Virus record (IMG/VR): IMGVR_UViG_3300025018_000091
Length of the DNA: 64,000 nt
Reading direction: 5' to 3' (one strand)
DNA from: a virus
Lineage: Duplodnaviria > Caudoviricetes
Position numbers and translations under genes: made by a program. The notes below the pieces were generated by a model that saw only the letters and a list, made by a program, of their open reading frames with translations, searched no databases and had not been told where the DNA came from. Shown here piece after piece: positions 2,842-43,500 of the stretch; position 1 is the first letter of the stretch; every line of letters begins with the position of its first letter.

Positions 2842-3324
2842 TTAATTTATCGCCATCCAAACCAAGGGAATCAAAAAGATTATATGAATGATTTGATCGA
2901 CGGTAATCATGATGATTTTGCCTAATGGAGTCTTAGAAAATTCAAAAAAACCTTCTTTATCATCCCTTGGGTATCCAATTATATTTCCTTCAGAAAGTAC
3001 TTGATATTTATAAAGTTCAAACATTTCTGGCGGCTTGCGAACATACTTAGCCCAAAGATAGACTGGAATATATGTATCCTCAATGAAATGAGAAAAGAAT
3101 AAAATTAGCAATCCTGCATAAAATTCAAAAAAATTAAGCTGCATTAGCAACATAATTGGAATAAATCCGGCAGTATAAATTAAACAATGCCTTGCTCTTA
3201 TTAATGGAGAATTGTTCTTCTCCATTGCTTCTTTATGAGTTTGAAATAACCAATCTACAACAAAATGTACAAATGTTAATAGAAAAAGAAGCCCGCCTGC
3301 ATTAGCTAATGTTTGAATTATCAT
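2842..3324 (-). CDS. DUF3307-like membrane protein
   Basis: HFVVDWLFQT, HCLIY, SHFIED, VDQIIH motifs with hydrophobic segments. Confidence 0.7.
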   Translation of the reverse strand: MIIQTLANAGGLLFLLTFVHFVVDWLFQTHKEAMEKNNSPLIRARHCLIYTAGFIPIMLLMQLNFFEFYAGLLILFFSHFIEDTYIPVYLWAKYVRKPPEMFELYKYQVLSEGNIIGYPRDDKEGFFEFSKTPLGKIIMITVDQIIHIIFLIPLVWMAIN

Positions 3325-3617
3325 TTCTTATTCTTTTCGAAATAAAGCTTTTCTGCCTGCTCATAAGTAAGATTTAGATGTTCTAACAAAAAATTAAGTA
3401 GAGCATATTGAGAACAATGTTCTACTCTGCAAATACAACAGCTTATACATTGTTCATACTGAAAATCTGGGTCATCACCCTCGGGAATCCACGTAAATTC
3501 GGGATCAGCACATGTTTTACTACAAAATTGAGCACCGCACTCACAATAGATAGTATAATCACTATCATCTCTAAAACCAGTGCGGCACTTATGACATTGA
3601 TAATAATCAACACCCAT
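3321..3617 (-). CDS. hypothetical Cys-rich (Zn-binding) protein
   Basis: Multiple CxxC motifs; overlaps neighbours in operon fashion. Confidence 0.6.
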   Translation of the reverse strand: MGVDYYQCHKCRTGFRDDSDYTIYCECGAQFCSKTCADPEFTWIPEGDDPDFQYEQCISCCICRVEHCSQYALLNFLLEHLNLTYEQAEKLYFEKNKK

Positions 3618-3619
3618 AA

Positions 3620-5227
3620 TTATGCCCTTAAGTCAAACACTCTACCGAATGGCGGTGTAAATGCACTTCCACTTGTAATCAGCCAGATAACATCTTTACC
3701 AGGATTTTTCATCTCTACGATATCAGAATCCAATAAAAATCCATCTGTAATTACAATTAGAAAGTCACAATGACCAAGATTTTGTTCATAATTTTCAAAG
3801 AAATCGGCAAATTTGGTTCCACCTCTGCCATATACTTTTACTTTCATAAGTTCTTCTTGATCAGCCTTTTTGATCTTAACAGCCTTGTCCCAATAGATTT
3901 CTGCATCGGCTGGAACGATTGTTCCTTCCGCACGCTCATCTAAAGCGCATAGCTGAGATAAACCGAATGCCATATCGTCCTTACCCATAGAACCACTAGT
4001 ATCAAGTAAACAACCAAAATGAGCATAATAGTTCCTTCTTTTAGGAACAAGCAACCCTACAAACATAGGACGAGTTCTAAATCTAGTCCAATCATTACGA
4101 CCATTTCCTGCTCTAGCTTTTATTAAACGAGTACGAATAATATCTTGCCAAGTAACTTTAGGTGCAGTCAATTTGCCTAACTCATCTTCTAGCGCAGCAG
4201 GAACATGCCCTGCCATTTTCTTTGCAGCTTCCATAGCATCAGAGATTCTCTTAGCTAATTTCTCTTCAGATTCTTCTGTATCCATGTGGTCATCTAAAGT
4301 TCCACCGAATCCAAAGATATCAAAACCACCGCCACATTCTGGGCAACTCCCTCCTCCACAGCTTGGACATTGGTCATCATCACCTTGATCGTCACCATTA
4401 CTGGGATTATTTCCCTTTCCCTTTTCCTTACCTTTCCCATCACCTTTGCCTTTATCTTTACCTTTTTGACCAGATTTAGGGAACTTATACATACCAACAC
4501 TGCCGCATTTAGGACACTTAGGTAGTAAGTTATATAGCATATCGTAAATCTTTTCGGGGCGTTTCATTTCCTCTTCTAGATCCGGATCAGCATAATAAAA
4601 CTTAACTGACTTCTCCCTGCGTTCTAATTCTTTTTGTTCTTGAGGAGTTAGTTCTCTATCTTCATTCGGCTTAGGAAGGCTAATATGTGGGTCTTGGTCA
4701 AATCCTGGGTGTAAATCTTCAAATCCTTTTGGTGGATGGAATGGATCTTTAAGCAACTTGGCATATGCTTTTAGCGGCATATATCTTCCCACTTCCTTAG
4801 TGAAGACGTCATGGGGATTATGTTTTCTTGCTTTTAAGTCTTCCATACAAGTACCGTTAACAATATAGTCGACGGCGATGTTCCATAGCTTAGGTATACG
4901 AGAACCTCTGCGTTGAGGGTGCATATAAATTGCGTGCCATGCTTCATGGCTACAGATAATACGCAATCCCTTTCGACTTGTTTTTAAAACGAATTTTGGA
5001 TTCCAATAATACCTTTTGCCATCAGTTGCGGCGGTAGGCATATTAAGAGTACAGATGTGATCTATTGGATACATTAAACCAAAAATCAGCGGGTCTCCAC
5101 CTAAACCTGTACCAACGTGTTCGTTGTTATATCTTGTACCTAATTCTAAAAAGACCTGTGATAATTTTTCTTCAGCTTTGGCGACTAACTTATCATCAAC
5201 CTTACCAATGATTCTAGAAAATTTCAT
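3620..5227 (-). CDS. DUF2201-type putative metallopeptidase + VWA domain protein
   Basis: TAATDG, HEAWH (HExxH), WNIAVDYIVN, C-terminal LDTSGSM...GGT...ITDG MIDAS motif. Confidence 0.85.
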   Translation of the reverse strand: MKFSRIIGKVDDKLVAKAEEKLSQVFLELGTRYNNEHVGTGLGGDPLIFGLMYPIDHICTLNMPTAATDGKRYYWNPKFVLKTSRKGLRIICSHEAWHAIYMHPQRRGSRIPKLWNIAVDYIVNGTCMEDLKARKHNPHDVFTKEVGRYMPLKAYAKLLKDPFHPPKGFEDLHPGFDQDPHISLPKPNEDRELTPQEQKELERREKSVKFYYADPDLEEEMKRPEKIYDMLYNLLPKCPKCGSVGMYKFPKSGQKGKDKGKGDGKGKEKGKGNNPSNGDDQGDDDQCPSCGGGSCPECGGGFDIFGFGGTLDDHMDTEESEEKLAKRISDAMEAAKKMAGHVPAALEDELGKLTAPKVTWQDIIRTRLIKARAGNGRNDWTRFRTRPMFVGLLVPKRRNYYAHFGCLLDTSGSMGKDDMAFGLSQLCALDERAEGTIVPADAEIYWDKAVKIKKADQEELMKVKVYGRGGTKFADFFENYEQNLGHCDFLIVITDGFLLDSDIVEMKNPGKDVIWLITSGSAFTPPFGRVFDLRA

Positions 5228-5263
5228 ATGAACTCCAATTCATTATATATCTTAAGGTTGCTA

Positions 5264-6421
5264 TCAGTCATCTACTTGCTTCTTGATCTTATTAAGAACC
5301 TCTTCCCAATCAGGATGTTCATCTAGATTAAATTGAACTAAACGATCAATTTGAATTTGGCTACGAACAGCGACCAAAACATTTTCATACGAAACCCTTT
5401 GGAGGAACTTACCTACATGTTTAATGGATGGAGGAGGTTCATTTTCATTAGATTGATCTAATTGAGTTGCTAAGCGAGCACAAGTAATCATACAGGCTAC
5501 CAACTTCTTAGTAGGAGCCATAGGATTATATCTACTAGATACATCTTTGCCTTCATAGATATCTTCAATCATTGGCAACAGTTCTTGATAATGCTCGTAA
5601 TAGCTAGAATATTTAAGCCCTGCGTCTTTACCAACACACCCAGATACCTTAGTATTAAGGAGTGTAGTGTTCCATCCATGAGCTTCACCTTTATATAGCA
5701 GTTGTGAAGCTCTATCCCAACCTCTAGGAGAAGGGTCAGCATATCGATCATCTGGGTCTACATTACCAAAAAGATCCCTTGGATGGTCAGTAATATATGC
5801 AGTAACAGATGGATGAATGTGACCTCTCTTACCTGCCCATTCAAGCCAGGACGTGGCATCAGCTTCAACCAAATACTTTTCAGACCTATCTAAAAGAGGT
5901 AGGCTTGGTCTTGCGCCACCTTCAGAAATCAAGTTACCAGTCATAATAATTGACTTTAATTGTGGCAATGGACGACCATTAATTGATCTAAACTGAGTAA
6001 ACTCTAATAAAGGAGCCCAAAGGGAAGTATCTGCTTTATCTACTTCATCTAATAGTGCAACAACGCCTTCACTGCCATCAACCATGGGTTCATAGAATTG
6101 AGGTAGTAGGAAATCTACGAATTTTCGTTGTAGATTTGCTGCCATAATATTTGGATAACCGCCCATATCTACTCTTTCAAGCACAGAAAGATTAAGATAA
6201 ACTTCATGCATTCCAGCCTTTTTGATTTGATATTTGGCGATTTCGGTCTTACCGGTTCCTCTTCGACCAAACACTGCAATGTTACTATCCACTTGAATAG
6301 CAGCAGCTATATGTTCTGACAAATCTTTTGTGCTTAGTTTCTGCAGATTGAAATCAGAAGTGGTCATTACCTGTTGTTGCGTTTGAGCCATCTTATTCTC
6401 CGTGTAAATCCATAAATACAA
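5264..6421 (-). CDS. MoxR-like AAA+ ATPase
   Basis: Walker A GRRGTGKT, Walker B LLDEVD, TGN sensor, SPRGW; paired with VWA gene. Confidence 0.85.
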   Translation of the reverse strand: MYLWIYTENKMAQTQQQVMTTSDFNLQKLSTKDLSEHIAAAIQVDSNIAVFGRRGTGKTEIAKYQIKKAGMHEVYLNLSVLERVDMGGYPNIMAANLQRKFVDFLLPQFYEPMVDGSEGVVALLDEVDKADTSLWAPLLEFTQFRSINGRPLPQLKSIIMTGNLISEGGARPSLPLLDRSEKYLVEADATSWLEWAGKRGHIHPSVTAYITDHPRDLFGNVDPDDRYADPSPRGWDRASQLLYKGEAHGWNTTLLNTKVSGCVGKDAGLKYSSYYEHYQELLPMIEDIYEGKDVSSRYNPMAPTKKLVACMITCARLATQLDQSNENEPPPSIKHVGKFLQRVSYENVLVAVRSQIQIDRLVQFNLDEHPDWEEVLNKIKKQVDD

Positions 6422-29375: not shown

Positions 29376-29858
29376 TTAGCAGTAGATTTCCCCACCCTCA
29401 ATCTTGTTGTCCCTTCCAAAAATAAATTTGGCAAGTCTCTTTTTATTATTTAAAATATCAGTGAATGAAAGTTCATCATCATTTTCATTATACCAATAAA
29501 CACCTTCAATGTCTGGACAATAGAAAGTGTTGGCTTTTTCGCCATTAAGTTGTTTGAAAAATCTAATGTCGTAAGATATTCTCTTTGCTCCAGTATACTC
29601 TTTAAGAACAGACTCAAATCTTTCCATAAGCTTATCATCGCCATGAACACGAATGTAAGTTGCAATTAATGCTGCTTTTGATTGTGCTCCCGCAATTTCA
29701 AATTCAATTCCAGTAAAATCTTCACCAGCAATCAAAAGCATTCCGTTCTCATCAGGAAGTAATTTATCATCTAAATCACAATCTTCATTAAATGTAATTG
29801 AAATTGTATGAGAACTTGAACTATTTGTTTCGAATACGCCTCGTCTAATATTAATCAT
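29376..29858 (-). CDS. hypothetical protein, ETNSSSSH family copy 3
   Basis: NIRRGVFETNSSSSHT; shares VHGD...ERFESVLKE.TGAK and KANTF with copy 1. Confidence 0.7.
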   Translation of the reverse strand: MINIRRGVFETNSSSSHTISITFNEDCDLDDKLLPDENGMLLIAGEDFTGIEFEIAGAQSKAALIATYIRVHGDDKLMERFESVLKEYTGAKRISYDIRFFKQLNGEKANTFYCPDIEGVYWYNENDDELSFTDILNNKKRLAKFIFGRDNKIEGGEIYC

Positions 29859-30727
29859 AATCTATCTCCATATTTTTTGTAATAATCTAATAAAAATTGA
29901 CCACAACTGGAGCCAACATCACTACCAGGCGGTTCATAATATTCGTTTTCTATACCGTTATCTGTCAAAATCTTTCTAAACTCAGACACTCTATTTGATG
30001 CTTGAATTTTATAATCTTTCTCACTTAACTTTAATATTTTTACATTGAAGCCAGTACCTTTTAATAATTCTGATAACTCTTTTGCGTCTATATCTTTATC
30101 ATTAAGAAGGTCCATTAATGAATAATGGATTTCTACAGCATTATTAGTTTCTTCTTTATATGCTTTCAATAGTTCTATCGACTCTATGTGAGGCAACGCT
30201 GCAGGCATTAATTGCTTTCTTATAGCAGGATCTATTGTGTGTAGCGAATAATGGAATTTAACTAATTGTTGAAGATTGTTAGCAATAACTAAATCTTTAA
30301 ACTTTATGAAACTATGTTTAGATGGAATTAATGAAGCCACTGCGAAACGTACTAAGTTATAATCATCACAAAAGTACAAATCAGACAAAGACGCCATGGT
30401 TTTAATAACCTTTTCGGTACTTAGCAAAGGCTCTCCACATCCCATAAAAGAAATTAAAAGAATCTTATTGTCATCATGAAATGTAGTGACAGAATATTTA
30501 ATACCATCAATCATCTCATCGGGTCGCAAATTCCTTACCGGAAGGTCTAATCCAGTTAAAAAGCAAAACTTACATCCTAAATTGCATGCAGTTTGAGTTG
30601 GAACAACGACAATATCTTTCCCGTCTCCCTTGTTGATGTAAGAAAATTCTAATACATCATCTTGAGATAAGAAGACTTGTTTAACTGTTTTATCTATTCT
30701 TGAACGCAAAGTTTCAACTAATTTCAT
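29855..30727 (-). CDS. RlmN/Cfr-like radical SAM protein (one-piece)
   Basis: CNLGCKFC, FMGCGEP, YSLH, C-terminal GSSCGQF. Confidence 0.85.
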   Translation of the reverse strand: MKLVETLRSRIDKTVKQVFLSQDDVLEFSYINKGDGKDIVVVPTQTACNLGCKFCFLTGLDLPVRNLRPDEMIDGIKYSVTTFHDDNKILLISFMGCGEPLLSTEKVIKTMASLSDLYFCDDYNLVRFAVASLIPSKHSFIKFKDLVIANNLQQLVKFHYSLHTIDPAIRKQLMPAALPHIESIELLKAYKEETNNAVEIHYSLMDLLNDKDIDAKELSELLKGTGFNVKILKLSEKDYKIQASNRVSEFRKILTDNGIENEYYEPPGSDVGSSCGQFLLDYYKKYGDRL

Positions 30728-38643: not shown

Positions 38644-38865
38644 CTATTTCTTAATCCACTCATAAAATTCCAACATACATTTATAACATAAATCATAAGA
38701 TCGTTCTCCGCCAGCGCTTTCGCCTAAAGGACCAGTTACTCGATCTCTACAATATAGGTGTAATTCCCCGCTATAAAAAGGATTGCCCATTGGGTGACTT
38801 CTATCATCTTCTGCACCACATTTGTCACAAATTAAAATTTCTACTTTAGGAATTATCTTCTTCAT
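38644..38865 (-). CDS. small Zn-finger hypothetical protein
   Basis: CDKC...CYKC. Confidence 0.55.
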   Translation of the reverse strand: MKKIIPKVEILICDKCGAEDDRSHPMGNPFYSGELHLYCRDRVTGPLGESAGGERSYDLCYKCMLEFYEWIKK

Positions 38866-39104
38866 TTTTTCTTTTTAGCTTCAAATTTGATTATTTCAGG
38901 AATGTCTTTTGCATTAAGAATAGTCTCACAATTACAAGCCATACAGATTACAGCATATAGCTCCCAACCAGGATCATGCCAATCACCATTTTCTCCAGAA
39001 TATTGAAGATCATGTGTTTCAACCTCTAATACTGTTTGACAATGATTACAAATAATATCTTTTTTCCATAATTTAGGATCAACTGCATACTTTTTTATCT
39101 TCAT
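38862..39104 (-). CDS. small Zn-ribbon protein
   Basis: CNHC..LE....DL...CMAC. Confidence 0.55.
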   Translation of the reverse strand: MKIKKYAVDPKLWKKDIICNHCQTVLEVETHDLQYSGENGDWHDPGWELYAVICMACNCETILNAKDIPEIIKFEAKKKK

Positions 39105-39300
39105 CTTCTAGATCTTTCACAGCAACATCATATCCAGTTTCGATAGTACCTGGAAATGCTTTAATTGCTTTATCTAATTTAACTTCTTGTAAGATCCACC
39201 ACCCAAAATCATCAAGCTTTTCTTTAAGTTTTTCTTTATCTTCGTCTTTACAATCTAAAAAGAATGTAAGCTCTAATTTAAGCGCTAATTTATCTTCCAT
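39079..39300 (-). CDS. hypothetical protein
   Basis: Operonic overlap. Confidence 0.5.
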   Translation of the reverse strand: MEDKLALKLELTFFLDCKDEDKEKLKEKLDDFGWWILQEVKLDKAIKAFPGTIETGYDVAVKDLEDEDKKVCS

Positions 39301-39541
39301 AATATTCTTCCGCAGTAGGTTTTCTTTTAATCTCTAACCTAAGTAATTTGGGAATCAATTTCTCAACAATATAGAAACGCTTACTACAAACAGCACAATG
39401 AACAAAATAACTATCGTTATCACGTTGCCCGCTGGCTAAATAGCAAATGTCATTTTTATCGAGTTCGAGATCCGAATCACATTGGTCACAATGATATTTA
39501 TAAGACCAATCACTAATATCTATTTTATTAAGCACCTTCAT
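39290..39541 (-). CDS. small Zn-ribbon protein
   Basis: CDQC..LE....DI...CAVC; start adjusted to MKVLNK. Confidence 0.55.
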   Translation of the reverse strand: MKVLNKIDISDWSYKYHCDQCDSDLELDKNDICYLASGQRDNDSYFVHCAVCSKRFYIVEKLIPKLLRLEIKRKPTAEEYYGR

Positions 39542-39740
39542 TTGACACCTTCTTAATAATAAGTGTGCAAGATGAATCATATTTTTCGAAATATTCATCA
39601 ATCTTTTTGGCTGTTTTCTCATTAACCCACAGTTGGAGTTTATTGCCACATTGATCTTCTACAATACGTAGATATTTCTTAACTATAGGATAATGAGAAC
39701 AATAGTCAAACTCAGGTTTTTTCTTACATAAATGTGCCAT
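39528..39740 (-). CDS. hypothetical protein
   Basis: Operonic overlap. Confidence 0.5.
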   Translation of the reverse strand: MAHLCKKKPEFDYCSHYPIVKKYLRIVEDQCGNKLQLWVNEKTAKKIDEYFEKYDSSCTLIIKKVSNEGA

Positions 39741-39742
39741 AA

Positions 39743-39940
39743 TTATCTCTTAGGAATATAGTCTTCGATAGGAATAGGCTTTGCTCCGTTTATGTTTTCC
39801 CAATAGCCACTACGACAATCATAACCATCGATCCAGCGTCTATTTTTTGTACAATCACAAACTAAAACTGGACCAGCGTCATGTCTGCTATCATAGTAAC
39901 ATGGCGTTCCGCAAACAGAACAAAGATAATTCCTACTCAC
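39743..39940 (-). CDS. small Cys-rich hypothetical protein
   Basis: CSVC, CDC. Confidence 0.5.
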   Translation of the reverse strand: MSRNYLCSVCGTPCYYDSRHDAGPVLVCDCTKNRRWIDGYDCRSGYWENINGAKPIPIEDYIPKR

Positions 39941-40080
39941 TTCTCATCTTCTGTAATAATACTTAGCTGACCACATGCCGCTCCCGCCTCAACTTCAGCA
40001 CAAGTAGCTACAGCAATAGCATATTCAAATCCGTAATCTTCCAACTGTTTCTTAACTTTATTTGTAAATTTCTTATTCAT
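39937..40080 (-). CDS. 47-aa peptide equivalent to the RlmN C-terminus (AACGQL)
   Basis: MNKKFTNKVKKQLEDYGFEYAIAVATCAEVEAGAACGQLSIITEDEK; RBS GAGGGG overlaps the upstream TGA. Confidence 0.75.
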   Translation of the reverse strand: MNKKFTNKVKKQLEDYGFEYAIAVATCAEVEAGAACGQLSIITEDEK

Positions 40081-40090
40081 GATAATCCCC

Positions 40091-40876
40091 TCAAGCAATG
40101 TTAACACCCTTAACAACCCCCTCACCCATATCATTCTTATCTGACATCGGATTAGGATTAATTGACGATAACTTAATGAAAAACTTATCCGGATCGAATA
40201 TCCTTCTAAGATTTTCAATATCAAAATCAGCCTCATCTACCAAAGTAAGATTTAGCGTAGTCTTTAGATTAGATTTGGTTCTAATTTCACCAAGCCCAGT
40301 AATATTCACTTTCCTATTATAGGGAATTAGAATGTTCCTTCTCTCCTCATCTAAAGAATGAAGTGAGATTTGCAAGGTGATATTGTCTTTTACCCAAGAA
40401 TAGTTAGCATCTTTCACTCCAATAGTAGAAATGTAATGATGTGTACCTGGATACTTAGCGTCAATAATGCGAATTGCCTTTCGAACTGCGGCAACATTCA
40501 AAAATGGCTCACCCATTCTTGTATAATTAATCTTATGCTCTTTGGCATCTGCAAAATTATACTCTGGATTCTGAGCAATAACAAAATCAACTTGTTCTAC
40601 AATCTCTTCAGCGGTTAATGAACGCCATTTCTTTAATTGTCCAGTAGCACAAAACTTACACCTAACAGGACAACCGCTCATACAAGAAACTCCAATCATC
40701 CAACGTTCAGACCTATCTCCAAAATTGGTATCAGTCATAGAGTTTTGATGTCTCCCAACAGCATCTTTGGTATAAAGTGGAAGAAAAGTATCGGTAACTT
40801 CTACTGGGAAATCATCATCTGTTCGTAGAGCATAAACTGTTCCATTAGCAAATGATTTGGACCTTATGATCTTCAT
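40091..40876 (-). CDS. RlmN/Cfr-like radical SAM protein lacking the C-terminal catalytic-Cys segment
   Basis: CPVRCKFC, RMGEP, QISLHS; ends GVNIA. Confidence 0.85.
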   Translation of the reverse strand: MKIIRSKSFANGTVYALRTDDDFPVEVTDTFLPLYTKDAVGRHQNSMTDTNFGDRSERWMIGVSCMSGCPVRCKFCATGQLKKWRSLTAEEIVEQVDFVIAQNPEYNFADAKEHKINYTRMGEPFLNVAAVRKAIRIIDAKYPGTHHYISTIGVKDANYSWVKDNITLQISLHSLDEERRNILIPYNRKVNITGLGEIRTKSNLKTTLNLTLVDEADFDIENLRRIFDPDKFFIKLSSINPNPMSDKNDMGEGVVKGVNIA

Positions 40877-40888
40877 AATTAAATTTCC

Positions 40889-41224
40889 TTAACAAGTAGG
40901 TCTGGTATAACCAAACCCGCGAGAACATAAATCATCATCAATTGGAGGCTTTTTAACCGCTACTTTTTTTACTGTTTTGTTAATAGATACTTCTTCAGAA
41001 TCCATATTGATAATTTCAACCTTGAAAAAGTCCTCATAATCTTTATCATTACCTTTAATAACACCATTCACAAAACTTCTAATTATTTTAGCAAACATTT
41101 CCGGTTTCTTCTTTGCTAAAATTATACCCAGATTACACATTAACTTTTCATTATCTTTAATTTCATCATATAAATCTTTAAAAGATAATTTATCCAAAAG
41201 CTTATTAATTAAAACACTATTCAT
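40889..41224 (-). CDS. hypothetical protein
   Basis: ORF in operon. Confidence 0.55.
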   Translation of the reverse strand: MNSVLINKLLDKLSFKDLYDEIKDNEKLMCNLGIILAKKKPEMFAKIIRSFVNGVIKGNDKDYEDFFKVEIINMDSEEVSINKTVKKVAVKKPPIDDDLCSRGFGYTRPTC

Positions 41225-42135
41225 AATAGCACCATATCTTTCCCAAAATTAGTTATCAAGTTATTATCTTGATTAAAAATAAACGCCTTAACATAATCTG
41301 CACTACCAACCAAAACCCGCCTTAGATAAAATGGAACCTCACCTAATTCATTGTAATATGTAAAGTTTTCACACTTACATGACTCTCTATCTTTAGCGAA
41401 TTTCTCGAACAAAAATCCATCTCGTACATATAGCTTAGATGTTATGTCTTCATAATCTATGAATAGATTATCACAAGATTGTGTTTTATTCATAAGCGAT
41501 ACAAATCCAACCTGATAAGCTCCGACTTGAATTGCGAAATCTAAATATCCTCTAAGCTTTTCTGGCGAATCAATAAATCCCTTCATTAGATTACATGATA
41601 AGCTAAAAATCTTAGGTCCCATTTTGAATTCTTTTGCAAGATACGTGATGCTTGGAGTTTTAATTCCAAAAATAACGTTATTTTCTATATCATTATAAGA
41701 ATGTCTAGATATATGAATATCATTAAGAACATAAAAATGTGGTATTGTTCTTAATGATTGTAAATTCATACCATTAGTATTAATTGATACAGGGTATGTG
41801 TCTGCCCCACAAACGTCAGTAATCGTATGCAAAATAGATTCTACTGCATTTAAGTCAGATAATGGTTCACCACCAGTAAGACTGATTCTATTTATTACTT
41901 GTTTTTGATGTAATTCAATAAGACTTATTCTAAACTTATTGATATCAATTCTATCTTTTGAAGTAAATCCAGGACAAAAAGAACAGCGTGCTGGACAATA
42001 TCCAGAAGAATAGATATATAGATTTACTTTGTTATTAGCACAAGAACTGCCGCCCGTTGTAGAACAGACATAATCTCTTATGCTAATATGTTTGCCAAAG
42101 ATCTCCATGATATATTTATAATTCGGCTCTGCCAC
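41221..42135 (-). CDS. radical SAM protein
   Basis: CPARCSFC, LTGGEP, NTNG. Confidence 0.88.
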   Translation of the reverse strand: MAEPNYKYIMEIFGKHISIRDYVCSTTGGSSCANNKVNLYIYSSGYCPARCSFCPGFTSKDRIDINKFRISLIELHQKQVINRISLTGGEPLSDLNAVESILHTITDVCGADTYPVSINTNGMNLQSLRTIPHFYVLNDIHISRHSYNDIENNVIFGIKTPSITYLAKEFKMGPKIFSLSCNLMKGFIDSPEKLRGYLDFAIQVGAYQVGFVSLMNKTQSCDNLFIDYEDITSKLYVRDGFLFEKFAKDRESCKCENFTYYNELGEVPFYLRRVLVGSADYVKAFIFNQDNNLITNFGKDMVLL

Positions 42136-43500
42136 GAATCTTTTCTAATGTATCATCTACAAGAATTTCTCCATTCTCATATACAATCCTCATTACAGAC
42201 TGCGGATGCGAATCTGCAACAATAAGTTTTACTGTCTTATATTCACCATATGGAGTTTTAATCAAGTCCAAACGTCCAGCTTTTGAACGCTTGCCATCAT
42301 CTGTAATAGGATCTTTAAAGACATCAATGGATTCTTCGCCACGATTGATATGACAACATTTCATAGCGAATTTTTGCGTGTCACGATTAATCTGTTGTAG
42401 TAATGCTCCACCCATACCAAACGCGATATTGGTAGCACTAAACCCATTAGCTAATAACGCATCAAGAATCTGCTTAATGGAATCTTCATCAATGCCATCT
42501 CCTTGAAGGATTCTAACATTATTGAGAACCATATAATTCTTAGTGTTAGTTGTAGTTCCAAACTTCTCAGCAAGTAACATAGCCGTTTTCAACACTATCT
42601 CAACAGGATCCCCAGAATCGGGGCGGATTACGACCGTCGCACCGGATTTTATAAGTTCTTCACGCAGTTCCTCGCCCCATAGGTGGGAGCAAGCGTTCCA
42701 CAAATTATAAGAATCCGACACCACTGCAAGAAGCGCGCCAGGTTTCGCAAATTGAGTTAGCATATTACGATATGCTTCTATTTCATTTTCCTTACCCCAT
42801 GATGTAATCGAACTATGTTCTGCGGCTGGGATACTAAAACCTGCCATATCAATGTTATAAAATCGATTTGCGCAAACTACACCCATAACTGTGTCACTTC
42901 CCATGAAGTTAACAAGGTGAGCAGCACCACCAATCATTGCAGATTCTTTGCTTGACACTCCGCGAGAGCCAAAATCATGCAATTTGAAGTTAATTTCTGC
43001 CTTTGGGTCATCAGAGGACTTAACTAAAGCATTAAAAATAATGTTTTTAATTGTATAGCTTCTGGTACAAACTGTAGTTGGATACCAGACATATCTCATT
43101 AGGGATGTTTCAAGCCACGAAACAATCCAAAAAACCTTTGGGTCTGTAGATTCTACAGTGACTAAAACGTTGTGATTGGGCACTTTAGTACCCTCTGGAA
43201 CCGCTCGGATACGAACGGGAAGTTTTCCACCAAGATCCTTGGCTATATACATCCAGCCATCATAGTTGAAAGGCTCTCCATGAGCAGCAAAAAAAACTTT
43301 TGCTTCTTCGACTTCTTCAACCGTAACTCTATGAGACAGATATTCCTTTAGATAATATTGCAATCCGAAAAATACAGTCTCAGGATACTGTCCACCACGA
43401 GATTCGATATAACTAAAAAACTCGTCGTTCCTGCGGGGTATTGCAACCAATGCGAAGCCTTATAAGAATCAGTATCTAAAATAAAATTCATTTTTGACAT
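42116..43500 (-). CDS. nadV: nicotinamide phosphoribosyltransferase (apparent one-base indel at A6 43415-43420)
   Basis: True N-terminus MSKMNFILDTDSYKASHWLQYP from ATG 43500 lies in another frame; body YIESRGG, LHDFGSRG, AAEHS, VSDSY, RPDSGD, QGDG, GMGG. Confidence 0.93.

Follow-up and report, generated by a model that had tools for sequence, protein, structure and literature searches.

A conserved two-gene RlmN/Cfr-type radical-SAM methylase, apparently undescribed, in a giant groundwater phage

We describe here two neighbouring genes of the virus record IMGVR_UViG_3300025018_000091 (Duplodnaviria; Caudoviricetes), a stretch of 64,000 nucleotides that is referred to below as the window. Very probably, the two genes encode an RlmN/Cfr-type radical S-adenosylmethionine (SAM) enzyme in two subunits, a 261-residue core and a 47-residue peptide, with the cysteine loop of the enzyme supplied in trans by the peptide; the binding of one to the other is the predicted part of this reading. 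The textbook example of methylation by way of a methylcysteine on the protein itself, with two cysteines working together, is given by RlmN and Cfr; the latter has clinical importance as a resistance enzyme. The phage clade amounts to a natural experiment on this mechanism, in which the carrier cysteine sits on a free protein of 40–50 residues and the resolving cysteine has been discarded. This would imply either a novel route for resolving the covalent adduct or the use of what is otherwise a "dead-end" adduct as the product. The split system is abundant, with thousands of metagenomic homologues ranging from gut crAss-like phages to groundwater megaphages, and it is directly testable since it also occurs in cultured phages. 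As a conserved two-gene methylase of the RlmN/Cfr type, it is apparently undescribed: our literature search turned up no account of an RlmN/Cfr in two pieces or of an RlmN-like enzyme from a phage, the coverage of that search being incomplete and novelty therefore unproven.

The two genes and their junction

The features that define the pair are as follows.

40091-40876, minus strand: core subunit, 261 residues (open reading frame and translation)
39937-40080, minus strand: peptide subunit, 47 residues (open reading frame and translation)
40087-40092, minus strand: Shine-Dalgarno-like GAGGGG (direct reading), overlapping the core TGA and 6 nucleotides 5' of the peptide ATG

The core consists of RlmN-type N-terminal beta strands followed by a radical-SAM core, with no C-terminal cysteine loop. 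Its translation contains the cluster motif C69-x3-C73-x2-C76 and MGEP and ends in GVNIA-TGA, as the initial annotation of this DNA had read it, both genes lying on the minus strand. The peptide is made up of a helix, a beta strand (FEYAIAVAT) and an AACGQL loop with the invariant Cys36, and its open reading frame (ORF) ends in AGAACGQLSIITEDEK. From core to peptide, the junction reads GCT TGA GGGGATTATC ATG; the core stop and the peptide start are thus 10 bases apart, and the two ORFs are in different frames. Direct reading also bears out the ribosome-binding site laid over the core stop and the separate start of the peptide. The earlier statement that the break does not fall at a homopolymer is roughly true, the qualification being a short G4 run at the junction, which is irrelevant because the split is conserved (see below). 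In relatives, each peptide gene has its own start, preceded in most by a purine-rich ribosome-binding site such as AAGGAGG or GGAGG.

Family models recognize the core at a distance and the peptide not at all. With Pfam, the core matches Radical_SAM (PF04055) and, weakly, Fer4_12. Its best NCBIfam match is RlmN (TIGR00048), at 85.5 bits against a cutoff of 290 and over model positions 95-248 of 355, and the Cfr models (NF000424/TIGR04432) reach 48-51 bits against cutoffs of 468-550. In PHROGs, the core matches phrog_24834 alone, a family without functional annotation. The peptide has no match in Pfam, NCBIfam, PHROGs or PADLOC, and the PADLOC defence models match neither the core nor the peptide. 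A motif scan of the window found no ACGQ peptide beyond the 47-residue peptide and the tail of a one-piece paralog, and public records label both genes hypothetical.

The split is conserved

Related loci were collected from phage records, from IMG/VR contigs and from GTDB genomes or metagenome-assembled genomes (MAGs), 62 in all. A hidden Markov model of the peptide finds its gene at 60 of them (E 1e-10 to 1e-28), always on the strand of the core: adjacent to it at 31 loci, 0.4-2.7 kb downstream at 28 and upstream at one, with other genes between the two at 28 loci. The two loci where no peptide is seen are a contig with just 724 nucleotides of downstream sequence and a fragmentary copy. Core and peptide genes stand 1:1 at nearly all loci. 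Split loci come from crAss-like, FelixO1-like, Vibrio, Moorella and megaphage genomes as well as from many MAGs. Kehishuvirus 'tikkala', a crAss-like phage at 63% identity, carries the same pair with a different junction, as do Moorella phage MTATph1 and Vibrio phage D479. Yersinia phage P778 and Pectobacterium phage Arno162 have the peptide gene downstream at a distance of one or two genes. The best 120 homologues among 5.8 billion proteins are all 256-285 residues long, and all full-length members among the cluster representatives at E<1e-30 stop at the end of the core.

Fusions are known in four proteins and are rare. In P0132 (315 residues) and P0147 (695 residues), the peptide module stands at the N-terminus of the core, which amounts to a circular permutation, and P0147 (contig L063, 67-2154) joins the peptide, the core and a C-terminal second radical-SAM domain in one chain. 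P0190 (347 residues) and P0193 (337 residues) are one-piece proteins with the peptide at the C-terminus of the core. In the tree, fused proteins nest among or beside split members, a pattern that fits retention and re-fusion alike.

If the pair were a one-piece RlmN-like gene broken by a frameshift artefact or in decay as a pseudogene, this would explain why two ORFs lie 10 nucleotides apart, in different frames and beside a G4 run. We give this next to no chance of being right. Junction sequences and frame offsets differ among the 60 split loci, other genes stand between the two at 28 of them, and both pieces are strongly conserved. In addition, sequencing reads of one run, probably from the source sample, yield a contig that bridges the junction at about 15x word depth and has no indel. 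With the split conserved, an artefact is excluded, and the initial annotation's view of a real two-subunit enzyme is supported: single-ORF homologues and an indel in the reads were both looked for, and the split is the rule. Only this run covers the junction; the other aquifer runs cover the stretch in part and for that reason give no independent check of it, and no RNA run is listed for the stretch.

Several side observations concern these loci and samples. The same aquifer samples (runs X1-X4) also contain a second contig, at about 107x in X1, whose matches are confined to the short conserved core-gene stretches 40411-40442 and 40692-40709; a related gene is therefore present there too. In Vibrio phage D479 (L003, 3330-3578), one small ORF holds two tandem, near-identical whole peptide modules, each with AACGQM. 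In P0129 and L059 (2-1765), a LAGLIDADG intein lies at the third cysteine of CX3CX2C; intein insertions are typical of conserved sites in important phage genes.

Core and peptide together correspond to RlmN

For profile-profile comparison with hhalign, we built profiles of 26 cores (A1), 15 peptides (A2) and 14 canonical RlmNs (A3). The core profile aligns with RlmN columns 86-313 (probability 100%, E 2e-43) and the peptide profile with columns 318-361 (probability 94%, E 1e-7), and the two pieces are therefore collinear with RlmN. Columns 318-361 are the helix-strand-AACGQL stretch with the methyl-carrier cysteine (RlmN C355), which agrees with the earlier identification of AACGQL as the carrier motif. 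The homology of the peptide to RlmN is detectable by profile-profile comparison only: PDB sequences searched with the peptide profile gave chance matches only (E > 0.5). Within the family, the window peptide matches the C-terminus of the one-piece relative P0190 by BLASTP (E 5e-8). Across the alignment of 15 peptides, L13, G17, A21, A23, E29, A35, C36, G37, Q38, L39 and S40 are invariant, and Cys36 is invariant across all peptides seen.

Structure models point in the same direction. The AlphaFold2 model of the core alone has a predicted local distance difference test (pLDDT) score of 83, with its last strand and tail at low confidence, and the top PDB matches to it in Foldseek are RlmN (6fz6, 4pl1, 3rfa, 5hr6) and Cfr (9p0p). 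Binding of the peptide to the core was a check set beforehand, and the predicted complex of the two with cluster and SAM, which expresses likeness to RlmN rather than measured binding, favours it, at an ipSAE interface score of 0.84 in three of three runs against 0.00 for the best control. The ipSAE mark had been calibrated on solved complexes, of which 58/80 reach it, and on mismatched pairs, of which 2/110 do. Contact agreement in the complex runs is at least 77% and partner pLDDT at least 79. In the predicted contacts, peptide residues 18-22 pair with core residues 232-237, and peptide residues 39-41 reach the cluster-motif region (75-78) and the N-terminal strands. The AlphaFold2 model of the natural fusion P0132 (pLDDT 90, predicted template-modelling score 0.90, peptide part 72-94) shows the last strand and tail of the core with more confidence than the model of the core alone does.

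A lost resolving cysteine and a lost RNA-recognition domain

The split clade differs from RlmN in several features. The residue aligned with the resolving cysteine of RlmN (C118), seven residues before the first cluster cysteine, is G62 in the window. Throughout the split clade, Gly is the rule here; Asn, His, Asp, Ala and Thr are rare, and Cys never occurs. Among 150 representatives, canonical one-piece RlmNs have Cys here, the split clade has Gly, and a one-piece 'SNCGQ' clade has Ile, Val, Thr, Met or Asn. The initial annotation had correctly placed a Gly at this position and a Cys three residues later, C65, which aligns with RlmN S121 and is nearly invariant in close relatives. As a substitute resolving cysteine, which that annotation had allowed for, C65 was rejected: many split members, among them those of Kehishuvirus, Moorella, D479 and Yersinia, have Thr, Val or Leu at this position, and Cys also occurs there in canonical RlmNs that keep C118, such as 6fz6.

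The N-terminal helical RNA-recognition domain of RlmN is absent. The alignment of the core starts at RlmN column 86, or NCBIfam model position 95, and the core model begins straight with the beta strands. The family has in turn an insert of about 20 residues (core residues ~33-57), placed before the first core strand and without an RlmN counterpart, whose region holds the residues L32, P33, Y35, T36, K37, N45, R55 and R58, invariant in close relatives. The insert is of low confidence in the model, and part of it contacts the peptide in the complex model. The pair is acidic where RlmN is basic: the median isoelectric point of canonical RlmN is 8.7, that of the core 6.6 and that of the peptide 4.2.

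Compared with known systems, the phage pair thus stands closest to RlmN (23S rRNA A2503 / tRNA A37 C2-methyltransferase; 3RFA, 4PL1, 5HR6/5HR7, 6FZ6; TIGR00048), with which it shares the core fold and the extra N-terminal strands, CX3CX2C, GEP and the helix-strand-AACGQL carrier loop. It differs from RlmN in having the cysteine loop on a separate gene, C118 replaced by Gly, no N-terminal domain, the insert, an acidic charge and a score far below the family cutoff. With Cfr (23S rRNA A2503 C8-methyltransferase, antibiotic resistance; 9P0P; NF000424/TIGR04432), it has the class-A radical-SAM architecture in common, and Cfr gives a significant match to the core by sequence and fold, weaker than that of RlmN. 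Of the two cysteines of Cfr, C338 as carrier and C105 as resolving residue, the phage pair keeps the carrier only; it is also split, lacks the N-terminal domain and shows no sign of a resistance function. The laboratory variants RlmN C118A and Cfr C105A resemble what the phage pair is naturally, in that the carrier is kept and the resolving cysteine is gone (PMC9692996). These variants, however, are engineered dead ends of one-piece RNA enzymes, while the loss in the phage pair is ancient, universal in the clade and under selection, and its outcome is therefore presumably functional.

One-piece proteins lacking C118 are also known, among them a metagenomic 'SNCGQ' clade (~300 residues) and a paralog in the window:

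29855-30727, minus strand: one-piece RlmN-like paralog, 290 residues, with SSCGQ kept and Val at the C118 position

The missing C118 of this paralog had been noted in the initial annotation and holds on alignment. The paralog has no N-terminal domain and lies, on a long branch, among the canonical RlmNs in the tree. Like the phage pair, these one-piece proteins keep the carrier and lack the N-terminal domain; they differ in being single chains, in having Val, Ile, Thr, Met or Asn rather than Gly, and in lying on other branches of the tree.

A divergent RKIGVSLxSGC clade (P0208, L065 2132-2971 and about 12 related cluster representatives; 260-286 residues) likewise carries Gly in place of C118, and its proteins stop short of the cysteine loop. 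The P0208 gene lies between pyruvate kinase and GreA, a cellular-looking context. A separate ACGQ peptide was not seen on the two short contigs of this clade, which we treat as a different case.

Proposed mechanism and alternatives

The alternative offered by the initial annotation, in which the peptide is the substrate, may also apply: in RlmN chemistry, the cysteine loop is both a part of the enzyme and a substrate. We lean, modestly, towards the phage pair being a heterodimeric class-A radical-SAM enzyme with RlmN-like chemistry and turnover, that statement being taken as a whole. The 261-residue core would bind a [4Fe-4S] cluster and SAM. In the complex model, the peptide docks by adding its beta strand to the last strand of the core (232-237), which would lay the AACGQL loop over the cluster/SAM site and complete the RlmN fold in trans. 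By analogy with RlmN, one SAM would then S-methylate Cys36, a second SAM would be cleaved to a 5'-deoxyadenosyl radical that takes a hydrogen from the Cys36 methyl group, and the resulting Cys-S-CH2 radical would add to an sp2 carbon of the substrate. Since the resolving cysteine never occurs in the clade, the release step cannot be that of RlmN. The adduct might be resolved by another base or by the chemistry of the substrate itself, so that the peptide recycles, or it might persist; turnover is slightly favoured because fusions exist, core and peptide genes stand 1:1 and the conservation of the peptide is that of a subunit. As for the target, we lean, from sequence features, towards a small molecule of the adenine- or pyridine-nucleotide type, possibly related to nicotinamide adenine dinucleotide (NAD), over rRNA or tRNA, since the N-terminal domain is lost, the charge is acidic and the neighbouring genes are nucleotide- or NAD-related.

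Several points weigh against this proposal. All characterised members of the RlmN/Cfr family act on RNA, and the leaning towards a small molecule draws solely on charge, domain loss and gene neighbourhood. The association with NAD genes is a lead and not a result because several of the loci are from related phages and there is no control set. Loss of the resolving cysteine, in RlmN C118A and Cfr C105A, traps a covalent enzyme-RNA adduct (PMC9692996), and no conserved residue able to replace C118 was found in the clade; turnover is for these reasons an assumption. Finally, the complex prediction may have passed on likeness alone, through memory of the RlmN fold, since the partners are halves of a known fold.

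It is less likely, though a serious alternative, that the peptide is instead consumed, with the Cys-S-CH2 thioether adduct as the end product and the peptide as a one-shot tag or cross-linker on a nucleic acid, a nucleotide or a protein. Such use would explain why the peptide is kept as a separate, separately expressed gene, and it agrees with Gly, never Cys, at the C118 position across the clade, as well as with the stalling of the RlmN and Cfr variants as covalent adducts with RNA (PMC9692996; cf. PDB 5hr6/5hr7). The split is kept almost everywhere, even where the genes are kilobases apart, the tandem modules of Vibrio phage D479 supply two peptides from one ORF, and at 15 distinct loci the peptide gene closes an operon that also comprises the core, a second radical-SAM gene and a methyltransferase-like gene, which would suit a shared co-substrate. 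Yet fusions at either terminus would turn the whole enzyme into a single-turnover reagent, the 1:1 stoichiometry is found nearly everywhere, conservation extends over the entire peptide, docking strand included, as in a subunit, and a one-shot reagent fits a rare target and not a metabolite pool. A form of methylene tagging, in which the small protein becomes Cys-S-CH2-bridged to an adenine or pyridine nucleotide of the NAD family or to a nucleic acid, strikes us as rather improbable. If true, it would, together with the NAD-salvage genes and the second radical-SAM enzyme, alter or protect the nucleotide pool or mark a host molecule during infection.

The pair could also be an ordinary RNA methylase in two pieces, which makes 2- or 8-methyladenosine (m2A/m8A) in host or phage tRNA or in 23S rRNA and has another group in place of C118. 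No relatives other than RlmN and Cfr are characterised, and these two are also the best matches by sequence and fold; large phages encode tRNAs. We regard this as unlikely, considering that the RlmN N-terminal domain is missing, that the net charge is neutral to acidic while canonical RlmN is basic, that the scores fall far under the RlmN and Cfr family cutoffs, and that the genes recurring next to the cassette are nucleotide- and NAD-related, none of them RNA-related. Phage tRNAs, which the initial annotation had put forward as a target, are unsupported on the same grounds. A small gene adjoining a radical-SAM gene, with further radical-SAM genes and a small Cys-tailed protein nearby, would also suit a peptide that the ribosome makes and that is modified after translation (RiPP), in which case the peptide would be the sole substrate, matured and released, and its likeness to the RlmN tail would reflect descent only. 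This is quite improbable. Conservation runs through the whole length of the peptide, ACGQLS being invariant and no part forming a variable core; there is no leader/core layout, Pfam finds neither a RiPP recognition element (RRE) nor a SPASM/twitch domain in the enzyme, and the genes around show no recurring protease or exporter. That the peptide is found fused to one or the other end of the enzyme speaks for a lasting complex, and the predicted docking mirrors the C-terminal stretch of RlmN.

Gene neighbourhood

Neighbourhoods were counted at 56 distinct loci with 4-kb flanks, and the core and the peptide are the only universal members of the cassette. At 15/56 loci, a 243-residue MoaA/viperin-like radical-SAM gene and a 148-residue class-I methyltransferase-like gene lie between core and peptide, and the resulting four-gene operon is tightly packed with the peptide last (e.g. 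L010, 4799-5964). This operon is common in contigs binned with Clostridia, Bacilli and Prevotella MAGs.

Upstream of the core gene, the window holds three further genes.

40889-41224, minus strand: 111-residue protein with a Cys-x10-Cys tail (CSRGFGYTRPTC-stop; sequence)
41221-42135, minus strand: second radical-SAM enzyme, 304 residues, MoaA/viperin/NrdG-like (Pfam, NCBIfam)
42116-43450, minus strand: NAMPT (nicotinamide phosphoribosyltransferase), directly upstream of the cassette (Pfam NAPRTase 1.4e-62 and NAMPT_N)

The second radical-SAM enzyme, of about 300 residues, occurs in six loci including the window. L006, L008, L014, L033 and L048 have a homologue of it next to the core or between core and peptide, the latter arrangement being that of L008, L014 and L048. 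The extra domain of P0147 aligns with this family in hhalign (97%, E 6e-11), over its first ~110 columns only. Among 90 homologues of the second radical-SAM enzyme, none is long enough to carry the peptide fused to its end; the longest has 324 residues. The enzyme is likely an accessory partner in a subset of the cassettes and not a universal component.

The 111-residue protein has no match in Pfam, PHROGs or PADLOC. Cys tails of the same type adjoin homologues of the second radical-SAM enzyme in L006, L008, L069 and L073, and L007 has the same tail with the second radical-SAM enzyme absent within its 4-kb flanks. As a partner or substrate, the protein probably belongs to the second radical-SAM enzyme and not to the RlmN-like pair. 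More distant representatives of that radical-SAM family stand inside NAD operons, in the company of PRPP synthetase, NMNAT, PnuC, NadR, CinA, NAD kinase, NAPRTase, NAD synthase and NrtR, and each is preceded by a small protein that ends in Cys-x9-11-Cys-stop, as does the 111-residue protein of the window. No split RlmN pair was found in these NAD operons. The combination of a Cys-tail protein and a radical-SAM enzyme looks like an undescribed peptide-plus-radical-SAM module tied to NAD metabolism; it is seen in the window at 40889-42135 (minus strand), in L069 at 4625-5915 and in L073 at 3261-5903.

NAD-salvage genes lie near the split cassette at 12/56 loci, from about eight lineages, and comprise an NMNAT-Nudix or NrtR-type Nudix at eight loci, NAMPT at five and NAPRTase at four. 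This recurrent company of MoaA/viperin-like radical-SAM and NAD-salvage genes suggests a new element of phage nucleotide chemistry, which may be linked to counter-defence.

Directly downstream of the peptide gene, the window carries five small ORFs of 65-119 residues (38644-39940, minus strand), of which at least four have paired CxxC motifs and are zinc-ribbon-like, and two give faint hints of DUF7479.

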